Positions 1 through 27,318 of a DNA stretch of 57,236 nt are shown here, one piece after another. Both the position numbers and the translations under genes were made by a program. The notes beneath the pieces are model-generated. The model saw only the letters and a program-made list of their open reading frames with translations, did not search any database and was not told where the DNA came from. The stretch is from an uncultured Nitrososphaerota archaeon (GTDB lineage: Archaea; Asgardarchaeota; Njordarchaeia; Njordarchaeales; Panguiarchaeaceae). The DNA is taken from contig CAZWPQ010000005.1 in assembly GCA_964636085.1 (NCBI GenBank), forward strand, positions 32,730 through 89,965, read 5' to 3'. Within the stretch, counting starts at the first letter, position 1, and every line of letters begins with the position of its first letter.

Positions 1-3000
1 GAGTACCAGTAGGGAGACTGTGCCCAGACATCACGAGGAATAGCGATCCAGTACACATCATTCTCCTCGTCATAGGAGGCAGTCCAAGCATTCCACTCAC
101 CATCATTGAACCTCCACCAAATAGTCACATTGTCAACACCACTCTCATCATACACAGTCACATTGATATAGATACCGCCCAGATAATTGTCATAGATCAT
201 ACCAGTATCATTACCAGTAAACGACACACTGGTTATCTGCGGAGCATCATCGTCATCATCAACAATAACCGGGCCAGGATGCACACCAGTATCAGACATC
301 AACTGATCATTAGGCCTATCCATATCCGCGTCCCACACCACAATACGATAATATATCGTCAGATTGGTCGAGTACCAGTAGGGAGACTGTGCCCAGACAT
401 CACGAGGAATAGCGATCCAGTACAAATCTCCCTCATTATTGGGTGTCCATGCATTCCATTCGCCATCATTGAATCTCCAGTAGAAGGTTACGTTGTCTAT
501 TCCACTTTCATCTGTTATCGTAGCGTTTATGTATATTGCTCCCTGATAATAATCATATATCATTCCCGTATCATTTCCAGTGTATGTTATTTGTGATATT
601 GATGGGGCGTTTGTGTCATCATCATATATTATTGGGCCCTGCATCTCCCCCGTGTCTGTGTATAGTTGATCATCTAGCCTGTCGATATCAGCGTCCCATA
701 CTACTATCCTATAGTATATGGTTATTTGATATTGCTCCCACTCTTGGGCGGATGCCCAAAGGGATCTCTCGATAATTATGTAGTAGTTGTCTCCTTCGAC
801 GTACGGGTCCCATTGATACCAGCTACCATTGTTGAACCTCCAGTAGAATGTAACGTTCCATATGCCGCTCTCATCTGTTATTGTTGCATTTATATATATG
901 TCTCCCATATAGTTATCATATACAAAGCCTGTGTCATTTCCAGTGTATGATATACTTGTGATCTGTGGCGATGTTGTGTCGTCATCGAATATTTTTCCAG
1001 CATCTCCAATATTTGATACTAGTTTTGACCTGTCCATGTCTCCACGATCGTCATCATTGTCGTAGGCCACTACATAGTAGTATATCGTGATATAGTTTGA
1101 CCCTTCCCACGCACTAGTTGTTGACCATATCTCTTTGCTTATAGATATCCAGTATACATTGCCTTCAACATTCGGGCTTAGGGAGTAGAATGTATTATTA
1201 TCAAAGCTGTAGTATATCGTGGCATTATATATGCCAGAATCATCGATCAGTGTTATGTTTATGAAGAACGGCCCAGTGTAGTTATCATATATTACTCCGG
1301 TCGTCACGACATCTTCTATTGATGGTGGGTTTGGATCGTCATCATATATTTTCCCGGCCTCTGACATATCTGTAATTGTGGATAGTGAATCATCGTGTCT
1401 ATCATCATCTGCGTCTATAGCTATGACATAATAGTATATCGTAATATAATCTCCCTTGCCCCAGTACTCGCTTGAGGACCATATACTTCTATCTATGGCT
1501 ATATAGTATACATTCCCGTCTTGTTGTGCTTCCCAGCTGTACCATGTCATGTTGTTTATGCTCCATCTTATTGTGACATTGCTTAGGCCGCTCTCGTCGA
1601 TTATTGTTACGTTTATATAGAATGGACTCGTGGCATTATCATACATGATTCCTGAAGTAACCGTATTGTATATCTGGGGTGGTTCTGTATCGTCGTCATA
1701 TATGTTGCCAGCAATATCTATTGGAGAAATCGTAGATAATTCATCGCTTGGTCTGTCGAAATCATTATCCACCGCGATTATCTGGTAATATATCGTTATG
1801 AATGTAGCACCTTCCCACACATCTGATGCTGCCCATAGGCTTTTGCTTATGGCTATCCAATATACTCCGTTCGTGTAGTTGGCCCTCCAAGAGTGCCAGG
1901 TATTGTTGTCTATGCTCCATTTTATAGTCACATTGGATAGCCCGCTTTGGTCTATTATTGTAGCATTTATATAGAATGCATCAGTATAGTTATCATATAT
2001 GTTTCCTGTGGTGGTTACTGATTGTATTGATGGTTTCGTCGTATCATCATCATAGATTTTTCCTGCCTCACTAATACTTGTTTCTGTTGATAATTGATCA
2101 TGCGCCCTGTCCTGATCAGAGTCCCATGCAACTATGTAGTAGTAGATTGTTATATATGTTCTTCCTTCCCACGCACTTGTAGATCCCCATATGCTCTTGT
2201 CTATAGCTATATAATATATATCAGTGTTTTCCACTCTTGTGGGCGTCCATTCATTCCATTCTAGATCCTCAAATCTCCAATAGAATGTTACATTATATAG
2301 CCCACTTCTATCTGTGATTGTTGCATTTATATAGAAGACCCCCGTATGGTTATCATAGATTATACCAGAGGTTACGATATTGGAAATAGTTGGTGGGTCC
2401 GTATCGTCGTCATAGATTTTGCCAGCCTCTGCGATCTGCGTCGTTCTTGTCTTGGAGTCATATATCCTATCATTATCCGCATCAGTTGCAATTATCTGGT
2501 AGTATATAGATATGTATGTCCTATTCATCCATAGATCCTCCGAGGCCCACAGGCTTTTATCTATTTCTATCCAGTAGAAATTACCTGTATTGTTTGGAGT
2601 CCATTCATACCATAACTCTTGATCAAAGCTCCACCTGAATAATACATATATAAGTCCCGAATAATCGGTTATTGTGGCGTTTATGTAATAGGGACGAGAA
2701 GTATTATCATATATAATACCGCTAGTATATGGCGTTATGGAAGGCGGATTAGGGTCATCATCAGTTATTGTTCCAGCTATGCTAGGGTTTGTCTGCATTT
2801 GGGATTGGTCATATACTCTATCGTTATCATTGTCTATGGCCCAGATATAATAGTATATTGTTATTTCATCACTATATTGCCATTCTGGTGCATTTGACCA
2901 TTCGGATCTTGCAATAATTATGTACCACGCCTTAACGCCTAGCGTTGCATCTCTTTCATCCCAGCTGGAGTTATCATATGACCAGTATATTTTAACTGAT

Positions 3001-3485
3001 GCTACACCACTAGCATCCGATAGCACTACACTTATGTTAAAGCCTTCTGTATAGTTATCATAGATATTACCAGTCGTTATTATACTAACTACTGATGGCG
3101 GGTCTGGATCATCATCATATATTTTTCCGGCGTATATGGGGCTTGTCTTCGAACCATAGTTAGATGTCATGTCGTCATTGGGCCTATCATTGTCTCCATC
3201 AGTAGCAACTATATAGTAGTATATTCTAAGTTCTGTTCTTCCATTCCATAGTTCTGTTGTCTCCCAGTTCGACTTATCTATCGTTATCTCCCATATGTCC
3301 CCACCAATATTTGTGGCATCCCAATAGTTCCAAGAACCATCCTCGAATCTCCATACAATCTCTACGGAGGCTACCCCAGATGCATCAGTTACTTGGGCCC
3401 TTATATAATACTCTGTACTATTGTCATATATGTCTCCAGCCGTTTCTATGTTGGATATGCTGGGGCCTAATTTGTCGTCATCATC
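1..3485 (-). repeat. Intragenic tandem repeat array with a 353-369 bp period (118-123 aa), at least 10 copies, continuing past the left edge
   Basis: Acidic linker codons (plus-strand gtcatcatcat / gtcgtcatc, encoding DDD on the minus strand) recur near 250, 615, 975, 1335, 1690, 2045, 2400, 2755, 3108 and 3474. A translated copy reads DDDTTSPQITSISYTGNDTGFVYDNYMGDIYINATITDESGIWNVTFYWRFNNGSWYQWDP...ITIYYRIVVWDADIDRLDDQ. Confidence 0.85.
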
Positions 3486-5576
3486 TATAAATATCGAATA
3501 TGTCACTGTATATACAATGTTTCCAGCAACATCTTGAGCGTAGGATTCCCAATAAAGATGCTCTCCTATATGCTGCTTCCACTCAGTTACACTAATAGCA
3601 TAGGTATATGTATTCCCCGTATTAGAGGTTGGATCAAGCCAACTCGTATAGTCGACCCATCCCTCGTATTTGTATCTAAATTTAACCACGCTGATCCCGC
3701 CTCCCTCGTCAAACCAATTTATGGTTAGTACTATGTCATCCGTCTTATTATCATATATCGTACCTGTAGGGCCCGCATTTTGGTACCATGGATTCGACAC
3801 ATCGAGTTTGAATGGACCCTCTTGGAGGCTATCGGCTGTATTTCCAGCCCTGTCCTCCGCACGAATGATTATATCATAGTTCCCCGTAGGCAGATTTGTT
3901 ACATTGTATGTAGTTGATGTCCCCGCATTATAGGTGTTATAATATACCCCATCTTTGTATACTATTACTAAATATCTTCTTATTCCACTCATATCGTCGC
4001 TTGAAGCCGACCATGTTACCGTAATCCAGTTTTGGCTAACCCAGACATCGGTTGTTGGATTGTAACCTGTAATCGATGGTGCTGTTGGGGGCGACGTATC
4101 TATGTTTACCCCATGTTCCCAGTATATTTCCCATACCTTGGTGCCATTTACAGAGTACCTATTTTTGAGGCCATTCCAGAATTCATATATTGTCGTTGGG
4201 TTATCATTGTCAACAACCCCCCATATATAACTGAAAGGTATACTATAGTAATCCCCAACACCGTCGCCAGCTTGGTCATCATTTACAGTATCATACAGAT
4301 CCCATAATATCCCGGCCACAGCTCCACAGATATCTGCATCATTTACCGAATAATCAGAGTCGTACTGTGTCTCGAGATTATATGTGTTTGGATAATCATC
4401 ATATATGTATGGTGAAGTCATACCGGCATACTGCTTGACTGCTGATCCGAAGAAGGCTCCAAAACCCTCAACCCATGCTGTTTGCTGATTCTTATGGGCA
4501 CTCCAGTCGAATCCCATAGATGGTGATAATACAGAGTATTGCTTTAGTAGATATTTTGCATATTCCTTGAGCACCAATGACATGTCCTCCCAATCTTTAT
4601 AATCCTCAACGCCAGAAACATAGAGTATATTCGCATTATCATCATAATACATGGACTCATATTGATCACTAAACTCTACAGTTATTGGGTTTGGAGTTAT
4701 CCCTACGGTCGCCTGCATGAATTTTACTGCCTCTTGTATGTACCAAAGCACCAATGCTGCTCCCGCTGGGTTGGGATTTGATACATAATAATTGCCATTA
4801 GCATCGGTGTCGACATTTCTAACAACTAATGTCTCCTCCAATATATACCTTACACTCTTACCACTTGACGCAGACACATGATAGTATTCTTGATCAATGT
4901 CATATTGGCCAGCTTGGCCACCCTCATCAGAGAGATATATACTTACCGCTGTGTCATCGGGCACTTCAGAGTGATCATCGTACATTCTGACATAGTAGGT
5001 GGACCCAGACCTCTGAATTACCGCATAACTGGTGTCTAGATACATCCTTAGGAAAACATCCTGGTTGCCGTATGCACCCAACCATCCATCAGTATTGTCA
5101 AAAGATATCTCAAAGAACCCCGCGCTATCCGTCCTAGCGCTCCCTAGGGGATCCTCTGTACCATCTCCGTCTATATCCCATGCCTCAACAAGTATATCCT
5201 CAAGAGGATGAAAGCCATATGCGTCTTTGACACCAACGTACCCGTATACTTTGGCCCATCCCCCTGTGGGGTTTGATACACTCCTATCTAGTGGTACAAT
5301 TTCATAGCCTAGATATATCCTATCACTCGCTCCAGCCATGACTTCAAGTTTATTATTGTTTTTAGGTTCTTTTTTCAGTATTATTTGCCCGTAAGCTATT
5401 GTTTTGCCGTTAGACTGCTCTATTTTAACCTTATGTTTTATGACCTTTATTATAGCGTCAGCCAGGTCTTCTGCCTTTTTGTCTATCGATTTCGGCTTTA
5501 TTTCTCTAAACTTTATGTCTGCTAGGCCAGCCACTATTATGACTACTAATATTGTTATATTCTTCCAATTTCCCAT
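1..5576 (-). CDS. Giant secreted/surface protein, N-terminal 1858 codons only (C-terminus lies beyond the left window edge). Order of parts: signal/anchor, prealbumin-like domain, degenerate zincin-like domain, acidic Ca-binding-type loop, FN3/Ig-like modules, then at least 10 tandem ~120-aa repeats.
   Basis: Own minus-strand translation from ATG 5576-5574 gives MGNWKNITILVVIIVAGLADIKFREIKPKS... then ..VYGYVGVKDAYGFHPLEDILVEAWDIDGDG..SARTDSAGFFEISFDNTDGW... The codon phase at the left edge (..VYWIAIPRDVWAQSPYWYS) matches the phase of the ATG. The track lists no minus-strand ORF here, as expected for a frame that never reaches a stop inside the window, and shows only short plus-strand shadow ORFs. 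The protein is colinear with the N-terminal ~900 aa of the 14771..20011 product. I did not check every codon for stops. Confidence 0.8.
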   Translation of the reverse strand, partial: MGNWKNITILVVIIVAGLADIKFREIKPKSIDKKAEDLADAIIKVIKHKVKIEQSNGKTIAYGQIILKKEPKNNNKLEVMAGASDRIYLGYEIVPLDRSVSNPTGGWAKVYGYVGVKDAYGFHPLEDILVEAWDIDGDGTEDPLGSARTDSAGFFEISFDNTDGWLGAYGNQDVFLRMYLDTSYAVIQRSGSTYYVRMYDDHSEVPDDTAVSIYLSDEGGQAGQYDIDQEYYHVSASSGKSVRYILEETLVVRNVDTDANGNYYVSNPNPAGAALVLWYIQEAVKFMQATVGITPNPITVEFSDQYESMYYDDNANILYVSGVEDYKDWEDMSLVLKEYAKYLLKQYSVLSPSMGFDWSAHKNQQTAWVEGFGAFFGSAVKQYAGMTSPYIYDDYPNTYNLETQYDSDYSVNDADICGAVAGILWDLYDTVNDDQAGDGVGDYYSIPFSYIWGVVDNDNPTTIYEFWNGLKNRYSVNGTKVWEIYWEHGVNIDTSPPTAPSITGYNPTTDVWVSQNWITVTWSASSDDMSGIRRYLVIVYKDGVYYNTYNAGTSTTYNVTNLPTGNYDIIIRAEDRAGNTADSLQEGPFKLDVSNPWYQNAGPTGTIYDNKTDDIVLTINWFDEGGGISVVKFRYKYEGWVDYTSWLDPTSNTGNTYTYAISVTEWKQHIGEHLYWESYAQDVAGNIVYTVTYSIFIDDDDKLGPSISNIETAGDIYDNSTEYYIRAQVTDASGVASVEIVWRFEDGSWNYWDATNIGGDIWEITIDKSNWETTELWNGRTELRIYYYIVATDGDNDRPNDDMTSNYGSKTSPIYAGKIYDDDPDPPSVVSIITTGNIYDNYTEGFNISVVLSDASGVASVKIYWSYDNSSWDERDATLGVKAWYIIIARSEWSNAPEWQYSDEITIYYYIWAIDNDNDRVYDQSQMQTNPSIAGTITDDDPNPPSITPYTSGIIYDNTSRPYYINATITDYSGLIYVLFRWSFDQELWYEWTPNNTGNFYWIEIDKSLWASEDLWMNRTYISIYYQIIATDADNDRIYDSKTRTTQIAEAGKIYDDDTDPPTISNIVTSGIIYDNHTGVFYINATITDRSGLYNVTFYWRFEDLEWNEWTPTRVENTDIYYIAIDKSIWGSTSAWEGRTYITIYYYIVAWDSDQDRAHDQLSTETSISEAGKIYDDDTTKPSIQSVTTTGNIYDNYTDAFYINATIIDQSGLSNVTIKWSIDNNTWHSWRANYTNGVYWIAISKSLWAASDVWEGATFITIYYQIIAVDNDFDRPSDELSTISPIDIAGNIYDDDTEPPQIYNTVTSGIMYDNATSPFYINVTIIDESGLSNVTIRWSINNMTWYSWEAQQDGNVYYIAIDRSIWSSSEYWGKGDYITIYYYVIAIDADDDRHDDSLSTITDMSEAGKIYDDDPNPPSIEDVVTTGVIYDNYTGPFFINITLIDDSGIYNATIYYSFDNNTFYSLSPNVEGNVYWISISKEIWSTTSAWEGSNYITIYYYVVAYDNDDDRGDMDRSKLVSNIGDAGKIFDDDTTSPQITSISYTGNDTGFVYDNYMGDIYINATITDESGIWNVTFYWRFNNGSWYQWDPYVEGDNYYIIIERSLWASAQEWEQYQITIYYRIVVWDADIDRLDDQLYTDTGEMQGPIIYDDDTNAPSISQITYTGNDTGMIYDYYQGAIYINATITDESGIDNVTFYWRFNDGEWNAWTPNNEGDLYWIAIPRDVWAQSPYWYSTNLTIYYRIVVWDADMDRPNDQLMSDTGVHPGPVIVDDDDDAPQITSVSFTGNDTGMIYDNYLGGIYINVTVYDESGVDNVTIWWRFNDGEWNAWTASYDEENDVYWIAIPRDVWAQSPYWY

Positions 5577-5767: not shown

Positions 5768-8700
5768 TTATCTATGATAGTTTCCAGAGTAATCTGGCTC
5801 GCTTGTATCGATGGCTCCGTCACATGAGTCATAGAAGTATAGCCCAGATACGGATGTATTGACAGTATAATTCGCATTTGGATGTGGCTTTACTACTATT
5901 GTTCCATTGGTATCCCTCATAACAATAAATCTATGTACATGGTAATAATCATGGAGCTCCCAGTATACTGTGGTTGATAGCGTAATATTACCATTTATGA
6001 CATTGGGGTTATAATCCCCGGAAGTTATGTAGAACATTGGTGTGTAGTAGTATATCACCCACCAAAACATCAGGAACTCTACTTCATAGCTAAACATTAC
6101 CATAACCCACATGTCGCCATCCTCTATGCCCTCCCAATTCAAAAGGTAGTATGCGTCCCCATTCGCATTTTCTTGCTCCGCTTTGCCTTGCGCAGTGAAT
6201 GCTTCATCATTGTATTTCTGGTCGACATCTATGTTGCCAAAGTAGTCGTGGTGTCCGTCTGTCCATTCTATGTCCAATCTAGCGGATAGAGTGTATGATC
6301 CGCCAGTACCGAACCATACCGCATAATCTGGAAGGCTTGTCGGGGCATCAACCATTATTGGAGCGATCCAATAGTTGTTACTGCTATGTGCTAGGGGGTT
6401 TGATGCTGGATCCAATGCCTTGAATTCCTCGACCTCGCTATACTTATGTGTACCATTGTCCGAAAAACCTCCCGATGCTGGGGGATCATCTGGACATGTA
6501 TCCGTATCCTCAAAGAATATTGGGTCGTCGTCCCAAGTAATCAACATGTAATAATATGTTAACCATTCTGGGCTCATGGGCACCTCAATTTCAAAAGTAA
6601 CATCTGCATAAACACCTTCATTTAGATTCCAACCTACGCTCCAGCTCTTGAGTCCATTAAACTTAATAACATCAGATAATGATGATGGATCATATATTCC
6701 AGTGAAATTCAATACGTCGATGGTTATGTTCTCGATGTAGCATCCCCACATCTCCAGACTAAAGGTTACATTGAGAATACTGAAATTGTATTGATGAAGC
6801 TTAACCATGCTCCATAGCCAGTCCTTTAGTGCACTTTCTGGCATTCTAGGCCGCAACCTATTTACCCTCCATAATCTTACATATGCAAAGAATGTATTGT
6901 TTGAATCTTCTACAAGAGTTAGGTTATCTATGTATATCTCGCCTATAAAGTCTTCTTCATTCCCCGAGGCAATCGATCCATTCTCATAGATTCCCGTGAA
7001 TACCATTCTGGCCCTGAAGTTTATCAGGGATACATTAAACCCAAAGCCACCAGTTTGTTGGACATATTTAATGAGTGTCCAGTTGTAATCCCAGACGTTA
7101 ATGTATGCTGGGTCGCGCTCCCAGATTTTCTCTGCATAGGCAATAGAGTTCTCAACGCCGCCATAGAGCTCATCGTTTTTGTCAAACCAATTTCCATATC
7201 CAATTGGCTCTAAGTATACTACTTCGGCGTTCACACTGTTGACCTGTTCCTCAACCATCGAATCTAGTGCTCCCTGTATCGTGTCTAGGGTTATGATATA
7301 TGCAAACTTCGCCGAGAGGGCTTCTAGACCTGTTATATTTACTCCGAATATCTCCAAATTAATAATGGTATCCGCCCACACCGATATTTCCCAATTATGC
7401 AGAACATTATCAAGAAATTGTTGCAAATATTCATTCTTGAAGAAAACTATATCGATACTTATCTCTCCTGTATCATTGGCAGAAACCTCAAGATCACCCA
7501 CTAATCTTTGCAGCGCAAATACTGTTGATGCATTTAGTGGATCCATGAACAACCATGTCCTCATGAAGTATATCTTTAGGTTTAGAGCACTCCACAAAGT
7601 TTCATTTAACCTAAAAACGACATGAGTATCATTTTCTGAAACGACCGCCCAACTGACATTCTCAGCCGAGTAACTTATGATGTAATCCAAAAAGCTTGAT
7701 GTATCTATTTCGCCGCTCATTAATGAGTTATAGTAATCATCAACCGCATAGACGGTATCATTATATTTGAACGAGACATAAAGATTGAGATGCTCTGAGC
7801 CAAAAAGATTTATCGTAGTATTACCCCAAATGTCCATCACTACGTTCTTTTTCACTAATAGATCTGTAAGGAATCCCTGCAATGCAGTCTTATTGTTCTT
7901 ATATATTGTCAAATTGACTGTAAATGATGTGTCATTGTGTACGCTCAGCTCAATATATGGAACCACCACACTTGCAACTCTAGCATCTTGGTACATGAGA
8001 TCAGCGACCATGTCATACACATATACAGGAAGTCTCGCATTCTTTACAGTTATATTAAACTGAAGCCTTGCTGTGTTAGCGTCTTCACTAAGTACACATA
8101 TCTGCCCAATGAACATGTCAAACAATGATAATACGCTCGACTGTACCTCGGAGCCTTCTAATTGACTTGAGATGTTCCACCCAAATACTTCCGATAGCGA
8201 TATATTTGTAATATTGAGGCCAAATATACTGATCAAGTCTACATGTACATCCACATTTATTGAAATGATATAATTATTAAGGAGATCTTGAAGAAACGCC
8301 GCCGTCTCCACCTTATCATAAATCACTAAATTCACGCCAATAGACGTATTTGTACCCTTGCTTAGGGATATATTCGAAACGGTCCCAACAATTATTGTTT
8401 CATTACCTTTAGTAAGCGTAAAACTAAGGTTATAGAGCGCCAGGGACACATTCAAGTTATTGATAAATTCTGAGAGTATCTTAAGCTCATATGCATTACA
8501 TCCCTCCTCAAAGTCATAATATCCCCTGATATATTCCATATCCTTATACTGTATCATGGATCCAAAGTCCAGAGGTATTAGCGATCCATTCTCATCTTCA
8601 AGGCCATAAGTCATATTAACTATATCCACAGGTATATTGAACGATAAATATCGTGAGCTTCCGCCAAACAATTGTGCCTCTATTTCCCCATTAACATTTA

Positions 8701-11700
8701 TTGTTGTCGATGATTCTTTGATATACTCATTTATAAATGTTTCTAGAGCTGTTGTGCCACGGTAGACAATAATCCTTATTTCCATCTGGGATTGCTGAGA
8801 AGGCATAAGTTCAGCGGTTTCATTAACAATCAACCGGGCTATTTTGCCCTCCTTGTTCTCGATTAGTAGATCCATATCATATATCTTTATGTAGATTGGT
8901 ATGTCGTCTATATTGACTAACACAGACACATTTGCATATTTCCCATTCTCACCAATTACCTCTATTTTATCCACGGAATACTGCAGTATGTTACTCATCA
9001 CACTATCGGCAGCCTGCGAGATGCTTCCAACAGTATCAAATTCCTGATAAAACGAGAGATTTAGGAATAGCCTTTCAACTTGAGCCCCAAGGAGATATAG
9101 ATCCACATACCCAACAATGGACACATTTACATGGCCCGCAGAAAAGACGTTATCCAGTAGATTATGTGCACCTTTTGTGTCATATATCGTTAATAACATG
9201 TTAATAATCGTGTCATTATATGAATACAGACTATATGGTCCTCCAAATTGGACATGTAACGCTTCCTCCCCCTCTGAATATATTGTTATATCAGCGTTTC
9301 CTAAACGTATTAATGTGTCTAGTGGGCTCCTAGCAGTAACATTAACAGATAGGTTATATGAGTCTCCATCGAATGTTATTTGTCTGATCTCTTCTAGCAT
9401 GAATAATTGATCCATAGGCAATACTATAGAACCTACCCCCCCATTTTCGCCCTGGATATCCGACATCCCACCAGAAATTCTCAAGTCCAATGGTATATTT
9501 CTTATGTCAAACCCAAATATCACCAAGCTTGTAGTACCATTTATCCTTACATCGACAATGCCCCTCTCTACATAGTCCCTAATCAATGTAGCGAGAGCAT
9601 CGTTAGGATATTTGTCATAAAGACGTAGCGTCACATTAAATGTAGAATACTTATTGTAGCTGAGTTCAGCCTGATCGATAAGGATCTCTCCTATATCGCC
9701 ATACTCATTAGAGAATACTATATCAAGATCATAAATGCTTATTGATACTGGAGCATTATCTATTGTAAGGGTCACATTGATTTCTAGATAATCATCATAG
9801 CTCTTGGAGGATACTACTTCAGCACTTATAACCGATGGTAGAATATTTGACATAGCCGACTGATCACCCGTAATCTGGGTTGACAGGTCAATAATCACAT
9901 ATTCAGCAAATGGTATCTTCATGATCTCTAGGCCAAATATGGAGAAACTTGCATTACCACGTATCTCGCCTTCAAATGTCTTATTGATCAGGATGTTCTC
10001 TAGGAATTGTTTTGTGGCGTCGTTATCCTCGAAGATTATCTTGAATACACCCGTTGTATTTCCAAGCGGAGGAGCAACATAAAACTCGTCCATACCCCCA
10101 TATACAACTCTCTCGCCGTAGAAATAGATGGCAAAGTCAAATTCGCCGAATTTGATTGTTGTGTTAACGATATTATTGAATACAAAATATACCCATAGTT
10201 GCCTCTCATCCTTCTGTTCTATGCGCTGTATGCGTAATATCCTATCGATTCCTATCGGGATACCAACATCTCCTATTGTGGTTCCATCGGAGCTATATGC
10301 CACATTACTCATGTTTATGCTGAGTGTGAAATTCCATTCTAGGAAATAGAAACTAAGCTCTCCAATAATACTTACACCCGTTACTTTACTCATCACTAGT
10401 TCCTTTATCAAATCACGGGTGGCATTATTCTTGTAGAGCCTTACGTAGAATTCTAATGACACATTGTCTTCTGAGAGATCAATATCCTGTAGAAGCTCGC
10501 CCTCGAGGGTAATATTGTCATTTTTGTAGATCGATATGTTCATATACCGGACCTTCGCTGGTAACTTTAATATGTTTGATGTGTTTACATCTATAACAAG
10601 CTCAGCATATTCAGTGTTTTCATTAAGAACATCTATGCTTATATTGCATATCTCAAGTTGCCCAAGCGGTATGTCACTACTAGATCCTCCAGAGATAGCG
10701 TTTTTGATATACATCACTATCGGATATGTCATGTTTATGTCGAGTATCTCAATACCAAAGATCGTTATGTTTCCATAGCCATGGAAGGAGCAATTTATGA
10801 GTTCCTCTTCTATAAGATCCCTTAGGAAGTAATATGTATAATCGTTACTATAGAACCATATAGACATGTTTATTTGGGTATTGCTATACGGCTCTATCGT
10901 GAAATGATTCATGTATATCGACACAACTGTTACATTATCCCTCGTAATTTCTATATCGAAGGGGCCTATCTCAGCGCCTATGTCAAAGATATTTTCAAAA
11001 TCTAGACTTAGCTTAAACCTGTGCGTCTTATTACCATTTATATATTCTACACCCATATAACTGAAGTCAGCTATACTTATACTAACGTCGGGGAGGGTAG
11101 CAGTGGTTAATATCTGCGATGATGTTGCGGTAGCTGTGAAGTTCTCAAAATGGAATGGTAGGCTTAAGTTCACCCCAAAAATCTCCATAAAGACGTACCC
11201 ATCTATATCTATTGGATACAACCGACTCTCTAAGGCCCTCCTAAGAAATTCTCTTATGTATTCCATGTCGCTCTTGTAGATAATAAAGTCGAGGTCTATC
11301 TCTGCGGACGAGGAGGGCTCCAAATCAATGATATTATTTAGATGAAGACTTATAGCGGGATCTGGTCTGTTTATAAATGAAAAGTTTGTGGATAACTCAT
11401 ATACCTTAACTGGAAATCTAATCAATCCAGCATCCAATATCACATTGACTTCTGTGATATTTTCATTTTCATTGACTACTGATATACTCCTTATTGATGC
11501 ATTGAATAGACCACCAATATCGTAATATTCAGTAAATCCAGACTGATCGGCTAGATCCATGACTATATTACTAAAGAATTTATACCCGGGAAGCTCAATA
11601 CCGAATATCTTTATGTTTACTGTACCGTTTATCGTAGCATTGAATACATAGTCAACAAGTATTTCTTCTAAGAATTCTCCAAGCTCCTGTTTGCCCTTAA

Positions 11701-14668
11701 ATACGTATATCGTTACATTTAGCCCCCTTGAGGCATACGATGGTATGTCATATTGGCCGTCTATCATTATCTTGATAATTTTCTCACCGTTCTTTTCTAT
11801 ATATAACACAGAATCCCATATAGAGAAAGATATGCCTATTGTATTTTTGACATCTATAGATACACTAATTGCATATGACTCATATCCATCAACAATAGTC
11901 ATACCAATGTATCTAAAGTCAGCTATCTCGACCATACCATCAAACTTAAGAGCTGAAAATATACTTTCCTCACCACCTGTACTTTCTGTACTAATGACTA
12001 AATCGGAAAGCGTTATCCCATAAAACCTATGGCCAAATAGTTCTATGTCAATTGATACATCAACATATAGGGCCGAGAGGTCACCATAGACAAAACCTCT
12101 TACGAATGGTTCGAATTCATATGATAAATTGTTCAGAGTCAGCCTAATAGTGTTTACTGATGTTCCAGGCCCAATTATGGGTTCAACTATTTCTAGGTAT
12201 ACTGGAGGATCTATCGTTTCACTATTCATACTTGCATTTGCTTTTAGCGACATTATTTTCATGGGCAGCGGGATATCCTGAGTAAAGTTTACGTATATGT
12301 CTATCCTATCTGGGTACTCGGTGGCATTAATGATATCAACACAACTCCCATATAGTGCTGACTGCTGGCTGAACATGGATGATATTGAATCTATTAATGA
12401 AGCCGCAACAAGCATTCTGAAGTTATCAGTGGAAAAATTTAACCCCCCTAGATCCAGGCTTATGTTACCCGCAACCGAGACGTTTACAGTATATCCTCTC
12501 AGAGTATAGTTGAGGAATTCCAAAAGAGCACTATTGTCATATAACCTAATCTCTACATTGACTTCGCGAATATCAAGAGGCGGTATCTCCACATGGTTCC
12601 ATACTAGTAGTTCCGCAAAAGCTTCCTCAGTTTCATCCATATAAACCAATATGTCGAAATAGCCGATTTCGATGGGGACATTATACTTGTTCTTTATGGC
12701 TACAGTGGCCTCCATGGTGTACGCTCTTGTAGAACCTATTATCTCCTCACCTTTATAACTGACATTTTTGATTTCGAATAAATCTGACATATCGCTCAGT
12801 GACGATAATTGGTATATGTCGCCGCCAAGCATGTTTCCTCTTAGCCGTATTGGGACTTGAGAATAATACCTGCTAAGGAATTTTATATCGACAGAACCAA
12901 TGAATTCGATCTTGTTATACCATGTACTCGTCATAAAGTCATTGACAAAGTCATTCAAGACTGGTGTGGTTTTATCTATCCTGATCTCAACACGAGGAGA
13001 ACATTTTACAATATCTGAGATGCCATTACCAAACAGGTTTATATCGGAAATATATATGGATCCAACATAGTACCCTCTATAAATAATATCTCCATATATG
13101 TTGCTGAGGCGAATGGGCATTCTATCATAGGTTAAATTTACATGCGTAGTTATCACTATATGCCTACCATCGGGGTCAAGCGAGATATCATAATCCCCCA
13201 CGCGGAATTCACGAGCACTCATGTATGAGCCAAAGTCTCCTCCGATCGGCATAAATTGATCAAGCATCCCTGCCTGAGAGCCCTGGTCTCCTCCCATAAA
13301 GTTGTTAAAGGCGGACTTAATGTCTATATCTCTTATCCAGACACCAGCAAAGTAAATATCTATGCTTCCCGAGATATGTGAATTTAATTTTCCATAATAC
13401 AGTAGACTATAGAGGAAGCTGTCAAGATAGTCGTTATCATAGAATGTTATGTTTAAAGAGAAGTTTTCAGATTCTCCAGGGCTTACTAAAACATCACCTA
13501 CTTGGGTTACATGTAAAAATTCTGTTGTTTCAGACTCATTCTTACTCATCACTAGATCTATATTGCCCCATCCAAGTGTCCAATTGAGTGTATTATTGAT
13601 CGTTATGTCGATATAAAAATCATGACGGATTACATTCCCTATGAGTTTCTCACCGAGATATTTTGTCCTAACCCCACTTATTATGTCAGATAGTAAATTA
13701 GATACTGCCGAAAATATACTACCCGTTGTTTCTGATGTGGAGTTCCCACCGCTTAAAATGGTGGAGTATGGTTCTACGTCCCCCTCGAATTCAGCATAAT
13801 TTATCTCTATCCCAAAAATCTCAAGTGAGATTGTGCCACGAGCCTCACCATCGATTGTACCCTCCTTAAGTGCTTTTTCTAGAAAAACTTGGAGGGGCTC
13901 CCCTTTTATGAATCTAATAATTATGTCTGTTTCAAAGTTACCTTTCTGGGGGTCTAAGGTGTATGGCCCCATCTCGAAGTAAAGAACATGGCCAACATCA
14001 TTTATTATATCGAATGATGCCTTCTTTATCTTTACCTCCCCCACTTGTGCGAATTCCGATGGTACTACACCACTAACTCTTACTCTTGCTTCAGCATATT
14101 GTCCAGTTTCTCTTGTTAATGATATATTCTCCACAGAGATTCCTGGCATAAATTGCATTACTGGTGCATCTCCGGTCTGAAGAATACTCTCTAATGAAAT
14201 CGTTATTGGAAATCTCGCTATTGTAAATAAACCAAAGAATGTAAAAGGATACAGTGCCTTTATTTTCCCCTTGAATTTCTGTGTCCGTATGAACTCTTTG
14301 ATAAAATTGATGGTGGCCTCATTCTTGTATAGTTTTATCTGCATTTTGAGTATTCCAACCTGTCCTGGATCGAGTGTTATTGGGCCGATGGACCCCTTCC
14401 CACAAATCCCTCCTGTTTTTTCATCATATATTTCGAACAGTATCTTATCGACTTTTGCAGGTAACCAGAAATTATTTCTAACAAGAACTTTAATTCTGAG
14501 TACACTATATTGACTTGTTGACTCATTCTCCGCATACTCAAAACTAATTAGTTTGTAGTCTAGGCGGGCCAGAGGAACACTTAGAATAATGTTCACTCCA
14601 ATATTGGATATCGCAAACAGCAGGATTATTCCTATAATCTTTTTCTTAGTGAGTCTTATCTTACTCAT
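5768..14668 (-). CDS. Giant (2966 aa) membrane-anchored envelope protein: N-terminal TM/signal anchor, about 17-18 tandem LEA_2/WHy-like beta-sandwich modules, and a unique ~450-aa C-terminal region
   Basis: ATG at 14668-14666. The N-terminus is MSKIRLTKKKIIGIILLFAISNIGVNIILSV. The recurring module pattern is x-V-x-V-x-N-x-x-x-x-P-[IV]-x-[IV] ... Y/F-D-[IV] ... P-x-x-x-x-x-x-[IV]-x-[IV]-x-[IV/L]-Y ... F-L-x-x-L ... G-x-[IV]-x-[IV]-x-[IL]-F-G. Examples are LRIKVLVRNNFWLPAKVDKILFEIYDE...ITLDPGQVGILKMQIKLYKNEATINFIKEFI and VSIDVKNTIGISFSIWDSVLYIE...VNIKIFGIELPG. Confidence 0.9.
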   Translation of the reverse strand: MSKIRLTKKKIIGIILLFAISNIGVNIILSVPLARLDYKLISFEYAENESTSQYSVLRIKVLVRNNFWLPAKVDKILFEIYDEKTGGICGKGSIGPITLDPGQVGILKMQIKLYKNEATINFIKEFIRTQKFKGKIKALYPFTFFGLFTIARFPITISLESILQTGDAPVMQFMPGISVENISLTRETGQYAEARVRVSGVVPSEFAQVGEVKIKKASFDIINDVGHVLYFEMGPYTLDPQKGNFETDIIIRFIKGEPLQVFLEKALKEGTIDGEARGTISLEIFGIEINYAEFEGDVEPYSTILSGGNSTSETTGSIFSAVSNLLSDIISGVRTKYLGEKLIGNVIRHDFYIDITINNTLNWTLGWGNIDLVMSKNESETTEFLHVTQVGDVLVSPGESENFSLNITFYDNDYLDSFLYSLLYYGKLNSHISGSIDIYFAGVWIRDIDIKSAFNNFMGGDQGSQAGMLDQFMPIGGDFGSYMSAREFRVGDYDISLDPDGRHIVITTHVNLTYDRMPIRLSNIYGDIIYRGYYVGSIYISDINLFGNGISDIVKCSPRVEIRIDKTTPVLNDFVNDFMTSTWYNKIEFIGSVDIKFLSRYYSQVPIRLRGNMLGGDIYQLSSLSDMSDLFEIKNVSYKGEEIIGSTRAYTMEATVAIKNKYNVPIEIGYFDILVYMDETEEAFAELLVWNHVEIPPLDIREVNVEIRLYDNSALLEFLNYTLRGYTVNVSVAGNISLDLGGLNFSTDNFRMLVAASLIDSISSMFSQQSALYGSCVDIINATEYPDRIDIYVNFTQDIPLPMKIMSLKANASMNSETIDPPVYLEIVEPIIGPGTSVNTIRLTLNNLSYEFEPFVRGFVYGDLSALYVDVSIDIELFGHRFYGITLSDLVISTESTGGEESIFSALKFDGMVEIADFRYIGMTIVDGYESYAISVSIDVKNTIGISFSIWDSVLYIEKNGEKIIKIMIDGQYDIPSYASRGLNVTIYVFKGKQELGEFLEEILVDYVFNATINGTVNIKIFGIELPGYKFFSNIVMDLADQSGFTEYYDIGGLFNASIRSISVVNENENITEVNVILDAGLIRFPVKVYELSTNFSFINRPDPAISLHLNNIIDLEPSSSAEIDLDFIIYKSDMEYIREFLRRALESRLYPIDIDGYVFMEIFGVNLSLPFHFENFTATATSSQILTTATLPDVSISIADFSYMGVEYINGNKTHRFKLSLDFENIFDIGAEIGPFDIEITRDNVTVVSIYMNHFTIEPYSNTQINMSIWFYSNDYTYYFLRDLIEEELINCSFHGYGNITIFGIEILDINMTYPIVMYIKNAISGGSSSDIPLGQLEICNISIDVLNENTEYAELVIDVNTSNILKLPAKVRYMNISIYKNDNITLEGELLQDIDLSEDNVSLEFYVRLYKNNATRDLIKELVMSKVTGVSIIGELSFYFLEWNFTLSINMSNVAYSSDGTTIGDVGIPIGIDRILRIQRIEQKDERQLWVYFVFNNIVNTTIKFGEFDFAIYFYGERVVYGGMDEFYVAPPLGNTTGVFKIIFEDNDATKQFLENILINKTFEGEIRGNASFSIFGLEIMKIPFAEYVIIDLSTQITGDQSAMSNILPSVISAEVVSSKSYDDYLEINVTLTIDNAPVSISIYDLDIVFSNEYGDIGEILIDQAELSYNKYSTFNVTLRLYDKYPNDALATLIRDYVERGIVDVRINGTTSLVIFGFDIRNIPLDLRISGGMSDIQGENGGVGSIVLPMDQLFMLEEIRQITFDGDSYNLSVNVTARSPLDTLIRLGNADITIYSEGEEALHVQFGGPYSLYSYNDTIINMLLTIYDTKGAHNLLDNVFSAGHVNVSIVGYVDLYLLGAQVERLFLNLSFYQEFDTVGSISQAADSVMSNILQYSVDKIEVIGENGKYANVSVLVNIDDIPIYIKIYDMDLLIENKEGKIARLIVNETAELMPSQQSQMEIRIIVYRGTTALETFINEYIKESSTTINVNGEIEAQLFGGSSRYLSFNIPVDIVNMTYGLEDENGSLIPLDFGSMIQYKDMEYIRGYYDFEEGCNAYELKILSEFINNLNVSLALYNLSFTLTKGNETIIVGTVSNISLSKGTNTSIGVNLVIYDKVETAAFLQDLLNNYIISINVDVHVDLISIFGLNITNISLSEVFGWNISSQLEGSEVQSSVLSLFDMFIGQICVLSEDANTARLQFNITVKNARLPVYVYDMVADLMYQDARVASVVVPYIELSVHNDTSFTVNLTIYKNNKTALQGFLTDLLVKKNVVMDIWGNTTINLFGSEHLNLYVSFKYNDTVYAVDDYYNSLMSGEIDTSSFLDYIISYSAENVSWAVVSENDTHVVFRLNETLWSALNLKIYFMRTWLFMDPLNASTVFALQRLVGDLEVSANDTGEISIDIVFFKNEYLQQFLDNVLHNWEISVWADTIINLEIFGVNITGLEALSAKFAYIITLDTIQGALDSMVEEQVNSVNAEVVYLEPIGYGNWFDKNDELYGGVENSIAYAEKIWERDPAYINVWDYNWTLIKYVQQTGGFGFNVSLINFRARMVFTGIYENGSIASGNEEDFIGEIYIDNLTLVEDSNNTFFAYVRLWRVNRLRPRMPESALKDWLWSMVKLHQYNFSILNVTFSLEMWGCYIENITIDVLNFTGIYDPSSLSDVIKFNGLKSWSVGWNLNEGVYADVTFEIEVPMSPEWLTYYYMLITWDDDPIFFEDTDTCPDDPPASGGFSDNGTHKYSEVEEFKALDPASNPLAHSSNNYWIAPIMVDAPTSLPDYAVWFGTGGSYTLSARLDIEWTDGHHDYFGNIDVDQKYNDEAFTAQGKAEQENANGDAYYLLNWEGIEDGDMWVMVMFSYEVEFLMFWWVIYYYTPMFYITSGDYNPNVINGNITLSTTVYWELHDYYHVHRFIVMRDTNGTIVVKPHPNANYTVNTSVSGLYFYDSCDGAIDTSEPDYSGNYHR
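6870..14570 (-). repeat. Diverged intragenic array of ~140-aa (~420 bp) LEA_2-like modules, repeated at protein level only
   Basis: Module-end markers recur about every 135-150 aa: ISLEIFGIEINY, IDIYFAGVWI, ISLDLGGLNF, VSIDIELFGHRF, VNIKIFGIELPG, VFMEIFGVNLSL, NITIFGIEILD, ASFSIFGLEIMK, TSLVIFGFDIRN, VDLYLLGAQVE, IEAQLFGGSS, VDLISIFGLNIT, TTINLFGSEHL, INLEIFGVNITG. Confidence 0.7.
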
Positions 14669-24580: not shown

Positions 24581-25936
24581 TTATCCTCCAAGCCCCACTA
24601 CTTGTAGGTTCCTAAATCTTATTGCCGGTAGGAGTATTGCCCCTATTTGCTCGCGTTTTTTCGCTATTCCAGTTATGTTGTTTAATGCTTTATATAGATT
24701 CCCGATTAGGAGAGCATGTTTTATTGGTTGTTTTTTCTCCCCCTCCTCTATCATGATTGCACTTCTGATTTCCATCCCAAAGTTTCCAGTTATAAAATCC
24801 ACATTCGGTATTGCAAACTTCTCTACTACGAGTCCCTTGTCCATCTCTGCCATCAATGTATCTAGATCCTTATTTCCAGGAGTAATCTCTATGTTTGATG
24901 GTGCTGTTCCTGCTGGAGCCTTATGAGTTCCCTCTATTGTCCTTGTTCCCCTCCTGAAGCCATTTCCTCTAGGCTCAACCTTTGCTATTCTTGCATTATA
25001 ATAGTCGAATAGATAATTCTTCAGTACCCCCTTCTCGATTATTGGTTTCCTAGTTGTTGGGACTCCTTCATCGTCGGCTAGTGCACTCTTTAGCCCATAC
25101 TTCATTCTACCGTCATCAATCATTGTGAAGCTCTCTTCTGCGACCTTCTCCCCAATTTTCCCGATCCAAGGGCTTCTATGTCTATTTATATTCTCCCCGT
25201 TTACTGCCACCAATATTGCTGTTAGCATCCCCGCTAGTTCCATGGGTTCAACAATTACATCCAGTGTCTCCATCCCCGTATATGGCTTTGCTCTCGACGC
25301 TAATATAGTTTTTTCATGTAGCTCTACACCAGCATTTTCCCAGTCAATCCCATTCAGCATTGTTGAGTATCTCTTTATTATTCCCTCCCCCATCTCCTTC
25401 TTTGCTAGAAAGTGGACAAATATGTTTGTTCCTTTATGGGTATAGTCAACCCCTAGCGAATTCATTACTTGGAATTCGAATATGTTTATTCTTATCAGCC
25501 CCTTCATGACTCTTACATCATCCTTCTCTGCGTTCTCTATGATCATATTTGCATAACTGGCTAAGCCTTCTGAATCGATATTTTCGGCCTCCTCATCATA
25601 TACCCCCTCTACATGACCAGTTATACTCTTCGGTTCTGGTAGCGACTCAAATTTTTCGTCCTCTGGAGCAATCCTCGCTATCCTTATCCCATCCCTTATA
25701 AGTTTCTTCAGATCCTCATCATTCCTATATATCCCCGAGATGAAGCCAACGCGTTTCCCAATTACCGACTTTATACCTACCCCTATCCACGTATTATATG
25801 TTACTATGCTTGGTTTCCCCGCCTCTACGTATAGATTTACCATCTTGCCATTAATCACGAAACCCTCTATCTGGTCGGCCCCCTCCTTCTCACCTATCTC
25901 AATTATTTTTCTGCACACCTCCCCAAGCATAACCAT
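24581..25936 (-). CDS. pmbA: PmbA/TldE-family metalloprotease subunit
   Basis: PmbA_TldD-family length and C-terminal ..AIRFRNLQVVGLGG. ATG 25936 lies directly after the tldD stop (TAG 25941-25939) and is preceded by the SD-like GGGGGTGGAT. The track ORF start at 26023 would overlap tldD by 85 nt. Confidence 0.85.
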   Translation of the reverse strand: MVMLGEVCRKIIEIGEKEGADQIEGFVINGKMVNLYVEAGKPSIVTYNTWIGVGIKSVIGKRVGFISGIYRNDEDLKKLIRDGIRIARIAPEDEKFESLPEPKSITGHVEGVYDEEAENIDSEGLASYANMIIENAEKDDVRVMKGLIRINIFEFQVMNSLGVDYTHKGTNIFVHFLAKKEMGEGIIKRYSTMLNGIDWENAGVELHEKTILASRAKPYTGMETLDVIVEPMELAGMLTAILVAVNGENINRHRSPWIGKIGEKVAEESFTMIDDGRMKYGLKSALADDEGVPTTRKPIIEKGVLKNYLFDYYNARIAKVEPRGNGFRRGTRTIEGTHKAPAGTAPSNIEITPGNKDLDTLMAEMDKGLVVEKFAIPNVDFITGNFGMEIRSAIMIEEGEKKQPIKHALLIGNLYKALNNITGIAKKREQIGAILLPAIRFRNLQVVGLGG

Positions 25937-25938
25937 TC

Positions 25939-27318
25939 CTATCCACCCCCAACCAAGATTTTGGCACGCATATATGGGCCTCCGACCCCCACATATACCA
26001 TGTCTTCTTCTCCCTTCCCACACTGTCCCCCATGAAGCCTAAACTCTTTGCTTGTAGCATTGACCGTTTTTAGTATCTCCAAGGCTTTCCCCGTCAATGT
26101 AAATCCCCTCACAATATGCTGCTTTTCTCCATTCTTTATTAGGTACCCTCTTAACACCCTACATTCAAATCCACCACCAACAGGATCCTCCATACCGCCC
26201 AGCATATCTAGGGCAAGGAGCCCCTCTTTGGTATCCTCGATTATTTCATCAAGCGACCATTCTCCAGGCTCAAAGAATGTATTGGTCATCCTCACAAATA
26301 CCCTCCTATTAAAGTCTTGGGCTCTTCCATTTCCCGTTGGTTTTTTATTCATAATCGCAGCAGTCTCTAAACTATGCATGTATCCCCTATATATCCCCTT
26401 CTCGATTATAACTGTTCTTGATGATGGAGTCCCCTCACTATCGAAAGGTATCATCCCATTCCCCCCATTTATGGTTCCATCATCAACCATGGTGACCAAT
26501 TCCGAACCAACCTCTTTGCCAACAACACCAGTTAAAAAGCTTCTAGCCTTGATTATCTCGTCCGCTTCCGAAGCATGACCCATGACTTCATGAGCCAATA
26601 CACCAGAGACACTTGGATCCATTATCACATCCATTAGCCCACTTGGGGGCTTTTTTGCGGATAACAATTCTATTGCCTTCATCGCTACATTTTTACCCTC
26701 TTCCTCCAAGTCCATGTTTTTGACTAATTCAAACCCATATGTACCATCCTTAATTGTGTATGCATACTGCATTTTTTCAGCCTTCCTCGCAACGGCATAC
26801 CCAACAATTCTCGTCCTTACCTCTTCCCATGATATGTCTCCACCCTGCGAGTTTACCAGATGAATACTCAGTATAGACTCAGAGTATAAAGAGTTGGAAT
26901 TGATGATTCTCTTGTCTGCATCCCTCTGGGCCCTATCTAGAACCATTACTGCATCTATCTTATCCTCAAGATCTACATCCATAGGGTTTATTCGGATTGG
27001 CGCCTTCATCTTCATACTCCTTGTTGTTGCATCTAGTTCCAGCTTTCCTTTTCCGTAGGCACTTAGTTTTTCTGTATTTTTGTATGCCCTTTCTGCGGCA
27101 GATTTGAGAGAATCCCAAGTTAGCTCAGTTGTGGATGCATATCCCCAAACACCATTTATCATCACTCTTATCGAGACACCCTCCGCCTTGTCTATGTTTA
27201 TATATCTCAGCTCTCCATTAACAACCCCAATCCCGCACCCATATCTCCGTTCGAGTCTAACATCACAGAAATCAACATTCTTACCTAATAGGTACTCGAC
27301 TATATCCTCGATTTTCAT
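25939..27318 (-). CDS. tldD: TldD-family Zn metalloprotease
   Basis: HExxxH motif in VLAHEVMGHASEAD, the GGMEDPVGGGF block, and the C-terminal MRAKILVGGG. Confidence 0.9.
   Translation of the reverse strand: MKIEDIVEYLLGKNVDFCDVRLERRYGCGIGVVNGELRYINIDKAEGVSIRVMINGVWGYASTTELTWDSLKSAAERAYKNTEKLSAYGKGKLELDATTRSMKMKAPIRINPMDVDLEDKIDAVMVLDRAQRDADKRIINSNSLYSESILSIHLVNSQGGDISWEEVRTRIVGYAVARKAEKMQYAYTIKDGTYGFELVKNMDLEEEGKNVAMKAIELLSAKKPPSGLMDVIMDPSVSGVLAHEVMGHASEADEIIKARSFLTGVVGKEVGSELVTMVDDGTINGGNGMIPFDSEGTPSSRTVIIEKGIYRGYMHSLETAAIMNKKPTGNGRAQDFNRRVFVRMTNTFFEPGEWSLDEIIEDTKEGLLALDMLGGMEDPVGGGFECRVLRGYLIKNGEKQHIVRGFTLTGKALEILKTVNATSKEFRLHGGQCGKGEEDMVYVGVGGPYMRAKILVGGG

Follow-up and report, generated by a model that had tools for sequence, protein, structure and literature searches.

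An archaeal protein with 18 tandem LEA_2 domains and a lineage-restricted C-terminal domain, a candidate glycosylated surface stalk

The stretch of DNA analysed here—57,236 nucleotides of the contig CAZWPQ010000005.1, hereafter the window—originates from an uncultured archaeon deposited as Nitrososphaerota and placed by GTDB among the Njordarchaeales. It carries a gene for a protein of 2966 residues, consisting of an N-terminal anchor, a long array of LEA_2 domains and a C-terminal domain of its own, the latter referred to below as the head (Table 1). The hydropathy scan of the whole protein reveals one hydrophobic segment only, covering residues 10-34 and lying behind an N-terminus rich in lysine and arginine; this N-terminus is kept in the orthologues and contains no lipobox cysteine. 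The segment is read as a type II signal-anchor, which agrees with the single anchor and the extracytoplasmic position, the latter being a predicted one, proposed in a preliminary description made from the sequence alone. The protein is acidic (pI 4.35) and threefold enriched in N-X-S/T sequons, 90 of them being present versus 28.5 +/- 4.6 in shuffled sequences, with 29 sequon positions common to three orthologues.

Table 1 Features of the LEA_2-array gene and of the neighbouring genes in the window
Feature	Residues	Positions	Strand	Basis or remarks
Whole gene, LEA_2-array protein predicted at the surface	1-2966	5768..14668	-	ORF list and translation; ATG start
Predicted cytoplasmic tail (K/R-rich) and single hydrophobic segment of ~21 residues	1-34	14567..14668	-	hydropathy scan
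17 tandem LEA_2 modules, ~125 residues each	33-2463	7280..14572	-	HMM, Pfam, PDB profile matches, hhalign, AF2
Modules 1-6	33-168, 172-306, 325-463, 483-620, 626-763, 767-900			in-register HMM
Modules 7-12	909-1044, 1052-1185, 1192-1326, 1335-1464, 1473-1600, 1606-1740			in-register HMM
Modules 13-17	1751-1882, 1892-2022, 2034-2171, 2180-2310, 2329-2463			in-register HMM
Divergent 18th LEA_2-like module, ~40-residue insertion after the first strand	~2480-2663	6680..7231	-	HMM, AF2, Foldseek
Orphan C-terminal domain (head), ~315 residues	2651-2966	5771..6718	-	alignments of homologues
Upstream Ig-like surface protein (partner), 1746 residues		14771..20011	-	Pfam Big_1, CarboxypepD_reg, Big_3_5
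Paralogue of the partner, encoded downstream; 1858 residues or more, runs off the window		3..5576	-	31% identity over 777 residues to the partner
Two adjacent PmbA/TldD-family genes		24581-26023; 25939-27318	-	overlap of 85 nt as listed
Fourth giant ORF, 2026 residues		40310-46390	-	CarboxypepD_reg/SpaA-like matches

The 17 modules are joined by short linkers rich in glycine, serine, threonine and aspartate, the gaps between the module envelopes amounting to about 3-19 residues. The first self-trained hidden Markov model (HMM) recognized 17 repeats spaced at about 140 residues, but out of phase, i.e. running from the middle of one module to the middle of the next; the profile was therefore rebuilt from the in-register alignment. 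With the latter model the mean spacing of the 17 modules is about 143 residues and each strong module scores 67-103 bits. The HMM derived from three orthologues, without the window sequence, also yields 17 modules, at 50-90 bits each, the controls—20 shuffles and the reversed sequence—reaching at most 6.6 bits. Concerning the 18th module, it gives a weak partial match (residues 2527-2663) and, with 7.2 bits for the orthologue-only HMM, is borderline by sequence; it is stronger in the homologue P0005 (20.5 bits), and its order of strands and helix in the AlphaFold2 (AF2) model fits LEA_2. The number of 17-18 tandem units of about 140 residues given in the preliminary description is thus borne out as 17 strong modules plus a divergent 18th one.

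As far as the identity of the modules is concerned, the whole protein exceeds the Pfam cut-offs for both LEA_2 (PF03168; 35.5 bits vs 25.4) and DUF3712 (PF12505; 55.9 bits vs 24.1), the latter being the best Pfam match. Since just 5 of 71 single modules reach E<=0.01 against LEA_2, they have to be seen as divergent members of that family; when taken with their flanks, 11 of the 71 match DUF3712. The module profile, built from the same 71 modules of four proteins and searched against all PDB sequences, finds best the structure 3BUT (AF_0446) at E 1.3e-4 and over its full length (residues 3-116 of 136), then 1XO8 (Arabidopsis LEA14) at E 3.5e-3 and, further down and weakly, TMEM106B. The comparison of the module profile with the 3BUT sequence by hhalign gives 90.4% probability (E 1.4e-6), the helix of the modules aligning with the helix region of 3BUT, ahead of the last two strands. 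The AF2 model of residues 910-1329, based on an alignment of 21 rows (pLDDT 83.5, pTM 0.70), comprises three domains of about 125 residues, each with five to six strands, one helix and two to three strands in the order typical of LEA_2, a seven-stranded beta-sandwich with a single helix ahead of its final two strands, the domains being connected by linkers of 11-14 residues modelled with low confidence. Foldseek with the model of the C-terminal region including module 18 retrieves 3BUT (prob 1.00, TMt 0.44) as well as the luminal domain of TMEM106B (8B7D, prob 0.91). Distant multi-module relatives score 59-133 bits against Pfam LEA_2, and one relative of 297 residues with two modules bears the source name 'LEA14-like dessication related protein'. 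Judged from these profiles and models, the modules are divergent LEA_2 domains, which supports the LEA_2/WHy assignment made previously. No immunoglobulin (Ig), cadherin or CARDB family, considered there as the possible alternative, was found by Pfam in the repeat region at E<=1; Ig-like repeats would have been caught, because the neighbouring giant proteins do match Big_1, Big_3_5 and CarboxypepD_reg. There was likewise no Pfam match in the protein to bridge-like lipid transfer families of the VPS13/AsmA/TamB type, and the NCBIfam scan delivered no useful match.

The solved structure matched best by the module profile brings in a possible role in lipid handling. The structure 3BUT has a conserved hydrophobic groove of 27 Å with an unmodelled lipid-like ligand, and the LEA-2 proteins have been predicted to be lipid transfer proteins (Levine, bioRxiv 10.1101/2021.03.12.435176). 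If the modules keep such a groove, the array could take up, keep or hand on lipids or further hydrophobic compounds at the outer membrane face, a location topologically equivalent to the lumen of the lysosome or vacuole, where the LEA-2 domains of TMEM106B, Vac7 and Tag1 are found. These three share the type II topology with the protein studied here, the module envelopes follow each other closely, and the pTM of the three-domain model suggests a defined relative arrangement. On the other hand, the linkers in that model are of low confidence, lipid transfer by LEA-2 itself is just a prediction and no acceptor membrane is known for a Njordarchaeota-like lineage; moreover, the densely placed sequons of the modules point to a glycan coat, and conservation is highest in the non-LEA head instead of in the modules. 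All in all, a lipid-handling chain seems quite unlikely.

With regard to known tandem arrays, Pfam DUF3712 represents an out-of-register LEA-2 model that begins at strand 4 of a LEA-2 domain and ends at strand 3 of the following one (Levine, bioRxiv 10.1101/2021.03.12.435176); since it bridges two consecutive domains, a DUF3712 match reports a tandem array. According to the same study, fungal DUF3712 proteins may exceed 4000 residues, UM15053 from Ustilago maydis consisting of 15 gapless LEA-2 domains, the yeast Tag1 has three, and the typical archaeal LEA-2 protein contains two domains in about 311 residues. The search with the module profile found 559 proteins at E<=1e-3, among them 122 at E<=1e-10, many with 5-13 matched modules. 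They include a Korarchaeota protein, a giant of 3776 residues from Blastocladiella and relatives from metagenome-assembled genomes (MAGs) of Hodarchaeales, Asgardarchaeia and Helarchaeota, which already bear the automatic name 'DUF3712 domain-containing protein'; further array loci are present in MAGs of Thermoplasmata and Hermodarchaeota. In the literature search, no publication dealing with LEA_2 arrays of archaea was found. Given the published fungal protein with 15 domains and the archaeal arrays of 5-13 modules, the earlier suggestion that a polymer of nearly 20 LEA_2 copies would be a new architecture is not supported. What is particular here is the number of 18-21 modules in the protein and its orthologues—the longest clear archaeal case found—together with the orphan head and the partner gene.

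The protein shares with the fungal DUF3712 proteins the type II membrane topology and the gapless head-to-tail arrangement of LEA-2 domains, and the shift of its self-trained HMM out of phase was the one reported by Levine for DUF3712. It differs from them in its archaeal host, in facing, as predicted, the exterior instead of the lumen of the vacuole, in having 18-21 modules, and in the unrelated C-terminal head and the conserved Ig-like partner gene. A special affinity to the fungal proteins was considered and rejected, as their per-module scores (about 13 bits) are lower than those of small two-domain prokaryotic LEA_2 proteins (about 30 bits). The archaeal tandem LEA-2 proteins, to which 3BUT belongs as the C-terminal domain of AF_0446, also start with a hydrophobic segment followed directly by the first domain; they contain, however, two domains in about 300 residues instead of 18 and are predicted lipoproteins with a cysteine around position 20, whereas the protein studied here has a long anchor without such a cysteine. 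The other archaeal arrays—P0010, P0013, P0014, P0019, P0022, P0015, P0018 and P0030, from MAGs of Thermoplasmata, Korarchaeota and of Hermod-, Hod- and Helarchaeal origin—share the module, the N-terminal anchor and the richness in sequons, but are shorter (700-1900 residues, 5-13 modules), and none of them carries the head of the Njordarchaeota type. Five of them (P0010, P0013, P0014, P0019 and P0022; 7-13 modules), which occur in MAGs of Thermoplasmata, Hermodarchaeota and unclassified archaea, make up a second array family with its own conserved C-terminus (…RLNDEYNxDxDL…GEITLxVGxFE…), and P0010 and P0013 have long acidic cytoplasmic N-terminal tails. It should be pointed out that P0020 and P0033, located on megabase contigs and having 11 and 26 matched stretches, respectively, were not counted as LEA_2 arrays, since they match the first half of the profile only; by eye, both begin with a Calx-beta-like sequence.

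Full-length homologues are rare, the set of 5.8 billion proteins containing only three of them—P0002 (3400 residues), P0003 (2973 residues) and P0004 (2962 residues)—that are 36-43% identical to the protein from the window. The contig scan with the whole protein gave no match, and it took a profile of the conserved C-terminus to find the loci; these were obtained only from three Njordarchaeota MAGs and two MAGs labelled Crenarchaeota and Nitrososphaerota. Taken more broadly, the family loci L001 and L005-L011 and the proteins P0009 and P0011 come from MAGs labelled as Crenarchaeota, Nitrososphaerota, Altiarchaeales, Korarchaeota and Njordarchaeota; judged from synteny and identity, most of these are probably Njordarchaeota-type genomes with inconsistent labels. 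The NrdD encoded in the window and its counterpart in a Njordarchaeota MAG share 70% identity, and the Njordarchaeota contig L011 has the same downstream gene order as L001 and L002. The window is therefore assigned to a Njordarchaeota-like (Asgard) archaeon.

The module-by-module comparison of the orthologues demonstrates a strict positional orthology of the 17 modules, the identity being 31-58% on the diagonal versus 3-27% off it. The paralogous modules are 3-31% identical and neither TRF nor the repeat finder detected a DNA-level repeat array in the gene; for both reasons the array is considered old and not an artefact of assembly, as had been stated in the preliminary description. The number of copies varies among the homologues from 18 to 21: P0002 (positions 6079-16281 of L004) possesses 20+1 modules, its modules 15-17 having arisen by an old duplication of modules 12-14 as a block (28-38% identity), so that this lineage tolerates three extra modules in the array. 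Conservation rises toward the C-terminus, from 27-43% in the middle modules through 50-58% in modules 16-17 to 55-71% in the C-terminal region, the most conserved part of a protein otherwise 36-43% identical as a whole.

The head itself is acidic (15.5% D+E, 3.5% K+R), rich in aromatic residues and marked by the invariant motifs LNFTG, WDDDP, DDPP, DAP, MFWW, SGD and the terminal DGxxDxxEPDxxGN; by eye, its aspartate-rich motifs resemble Ca2+-binding loops and may possibly function as such. It has no match in Pfam and none among PDB sequences by profile search, and its profile found nothing outside the Njordarchaeota-type family among the 5.8 billion proteins. The AF2 model of the C-terminal region reaches a pLDDT of 62.6 overall, mostly 35-75 for the last 250 residues, and AF2 combined with Foldseek revealed nothing beyond the own family. 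A match to UnbV_ASPIC (E 0.06) lies below threshold and was rejected. Of the unique C-terminus of about 450 residues described previously, some 315 residues remain without a known family, the remainder being the divergent 18th LEA_2 module with its insertion. The fragment P0008 (672 residues, JGI contig) is distantly homologous to the C-terminal region; its module 18 contains an extra insertion of about 100 residues (residues ~150-290) resembling, by eye, a pre-peptidase C-terminal (PPC) domain.

Another reading is the classical role of LEA/WHy proteins, a stress protection that would shield the surface of the cell from desiccation, from heat or from oxidative damage. It could be considered owing to the LEA_2 family membership, the name of the two-module relative mentioned above and the plant LEA_2 literature on stress tolerance. 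Nothing in the sequence, however, speaks for such a protectant; the relatives come from MAGs of sediment and vent-type metagenomes, where desiccation would hardly be expected, and the conserved distal head, the partner gene and the fixed order of modules are features unexpected in a bulk protectant. This explanation is therefore regarded as very improbable.

The gene is accompanied by genes for further giant proteins. The partner encoded directly upstream has an N-terminal signal or transmembrane segment, a C-terminal transmembrane anchor and 53 sequons, and is 32% identical over 1714 residues to the protein whose gene immediately precedes the orthologue in L001. A Big_1-type giant precedes the LEA_2 gene in three of the four lineages (the window, L001 and L002/L003), with a gap of 10 nt in L001 and L002, and is absent at L004, the locus of P0002; the downstream paralogue has no counterpart next to the orthologues in L001, L002 and L004. 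The possibility that the neighbouring giants are LEA_2 arrays, too, was rejected: the module HMM has no match there, so they represent a different repeat family. Both Ig-like giants flanking the LEA_2 gene contain acidic motifs of the DxDxDGxGD type and repeated units of about 240 residues, and their N-terminal parts of about 450 residues match no PDB entry or family. In the fourth giant protein there are 63 sequons, and its C-terminal part contains eight or more hydrophobic segments.

The remaining part of the window is normal chromosomal sequence, with genes for TatD, RsmB, PmbA/TldD and NrdD. The downstream one of the two overlapping PmbA/TldD genes has a GTG start that may be miscalled. 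ARAGORN identified no tRNA genes in the 57-kb window, and the GC skew is negative nearly throughout positions 1-57236, matching the predominance of minus-strand genes.

The gene pair raises the question of a structural component of the envelope, in which the LEA_2 protein would form, with the upstream Ig-like giant, a surface layer (S-layer) or glycocalyx and would determine how thick the envelope is instead of binding an external ligand. The proposed pair of canopy and stalk would be loosely comparable to SlaA/SlaB. The pair is conserved, its proteins are anchored at opposite ends and both are sequon-rich and acidic, and the window holds a whole cluster of giant surface-protein genes. The pair is, however, absent in the P0002 lineage; the small number of homologues, confined to one lineage, would fit an S-layer protein without being diagnostic of one, and a row of 18 domains is far longer than the typical spacers of the archaeal pseudo-periplasm. 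Such a purely structural function is thus considered unlikely.

Based on the above results, the reading favoured here, with about even chances of being correct, is that of a type II-anchored, N-glycosylated extracellular stalk presenting a binding head, used for adhesion or in the architecture of the envelope, in probable cooperation with the Ig-like protein encoded upstream. The short cytoplasmic tail and the one transmembrane helix would hold 18 consecutive LEA_2 beta-sandwich domains arranged like beads on short linkers, with the conserved acidic head of about 315 residues, possibly binding Ca2+, at the far end. The array would serve mainly as a long extender, resistant to proteases and heat and measuring tens of nanometres if extended, that would carry the head beyond the cell envelope; there the head would bind a ligand, a partner cell or another component of the envelope. 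The stalk would probably act together with the co-conserved Ig-like protein of about 1700 residues encoded directly upstream. The pattern of a spacer plus a head is seen in the conservation gradient peaking at the distal head and in the tolerated length change of three modules; the surface exposure, the glycosylation and the extended shape are predictions drawn from the anchor, the sequons and the models.

The same overall logic is known from the bacterial giant adhesins, such as SiiE and those of the LapA/MpIBP type, which combine an anchored end, a long series of diverged beta-sandwich extenders, acidic motifs of the Ca type and a ligand-binding region at the far end. The adhesins, however, use BIg repeats instead of LEA_2 and a different machinery for secretion and anchoring, and Pfam reveals no sequence relationship to them.

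Three points limit the reading of a stalk with a binding head. First, the binding by the head is a guess from its conservation and acidic motifs, the domain having no detectable homologue or confident model. Second, the strict positional orthology of all 17 modules could mean that each module has its own role and is not an interchangeable spacer. Third, Foldseek with the three-module model found generic multi-Ig chains only (TM 0.15-0.23), a result that speaks neither for nor against LEA_2 in the canonical modules and cannot serve as a test of family.

A bolder proposal would view the long type II-anchored LEA_2/DUF3712 arrays as an unrecognised class of envelope proteins of Asgard and further archaea, handling hydrophobic molecules on the outer membrane face and perhaps continuous in evolution with the eukaryotic endolysosomal LEA-2 proteins Tag1/DUF3712, Vac7 and TMEM106B, whose lumenal side corresponds topologically to that face, the Njordarchaeota 18-21-mer being its extreme form, i.e. 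a fibre passing lipids or other ligands and equipped with a head for docking to partner cells or surfaces. This is a speculation that we hold to be distinctly improbable.

The LEA_2 domains are widespread and, to our knowledge, without an agreed molecular function; the human member, TMEM106B, is linked to disease. It should be emphasized that nothing is overturned by the present case, since multi-LEA_2 polymers have been published for fungi and are annotated automatically in Asgard MAGs. Archaea, including several Asgard lineages, encode very long, predicted extracellular LEA_2 arrays. The positional conservation of the modules, the novel head and the partner gene offer tractable constructs for distinguishing lipid binding by LEA_2 from a scaffold function, and the locus points to candidate surface structures of the uncultured Njordarchaeota.

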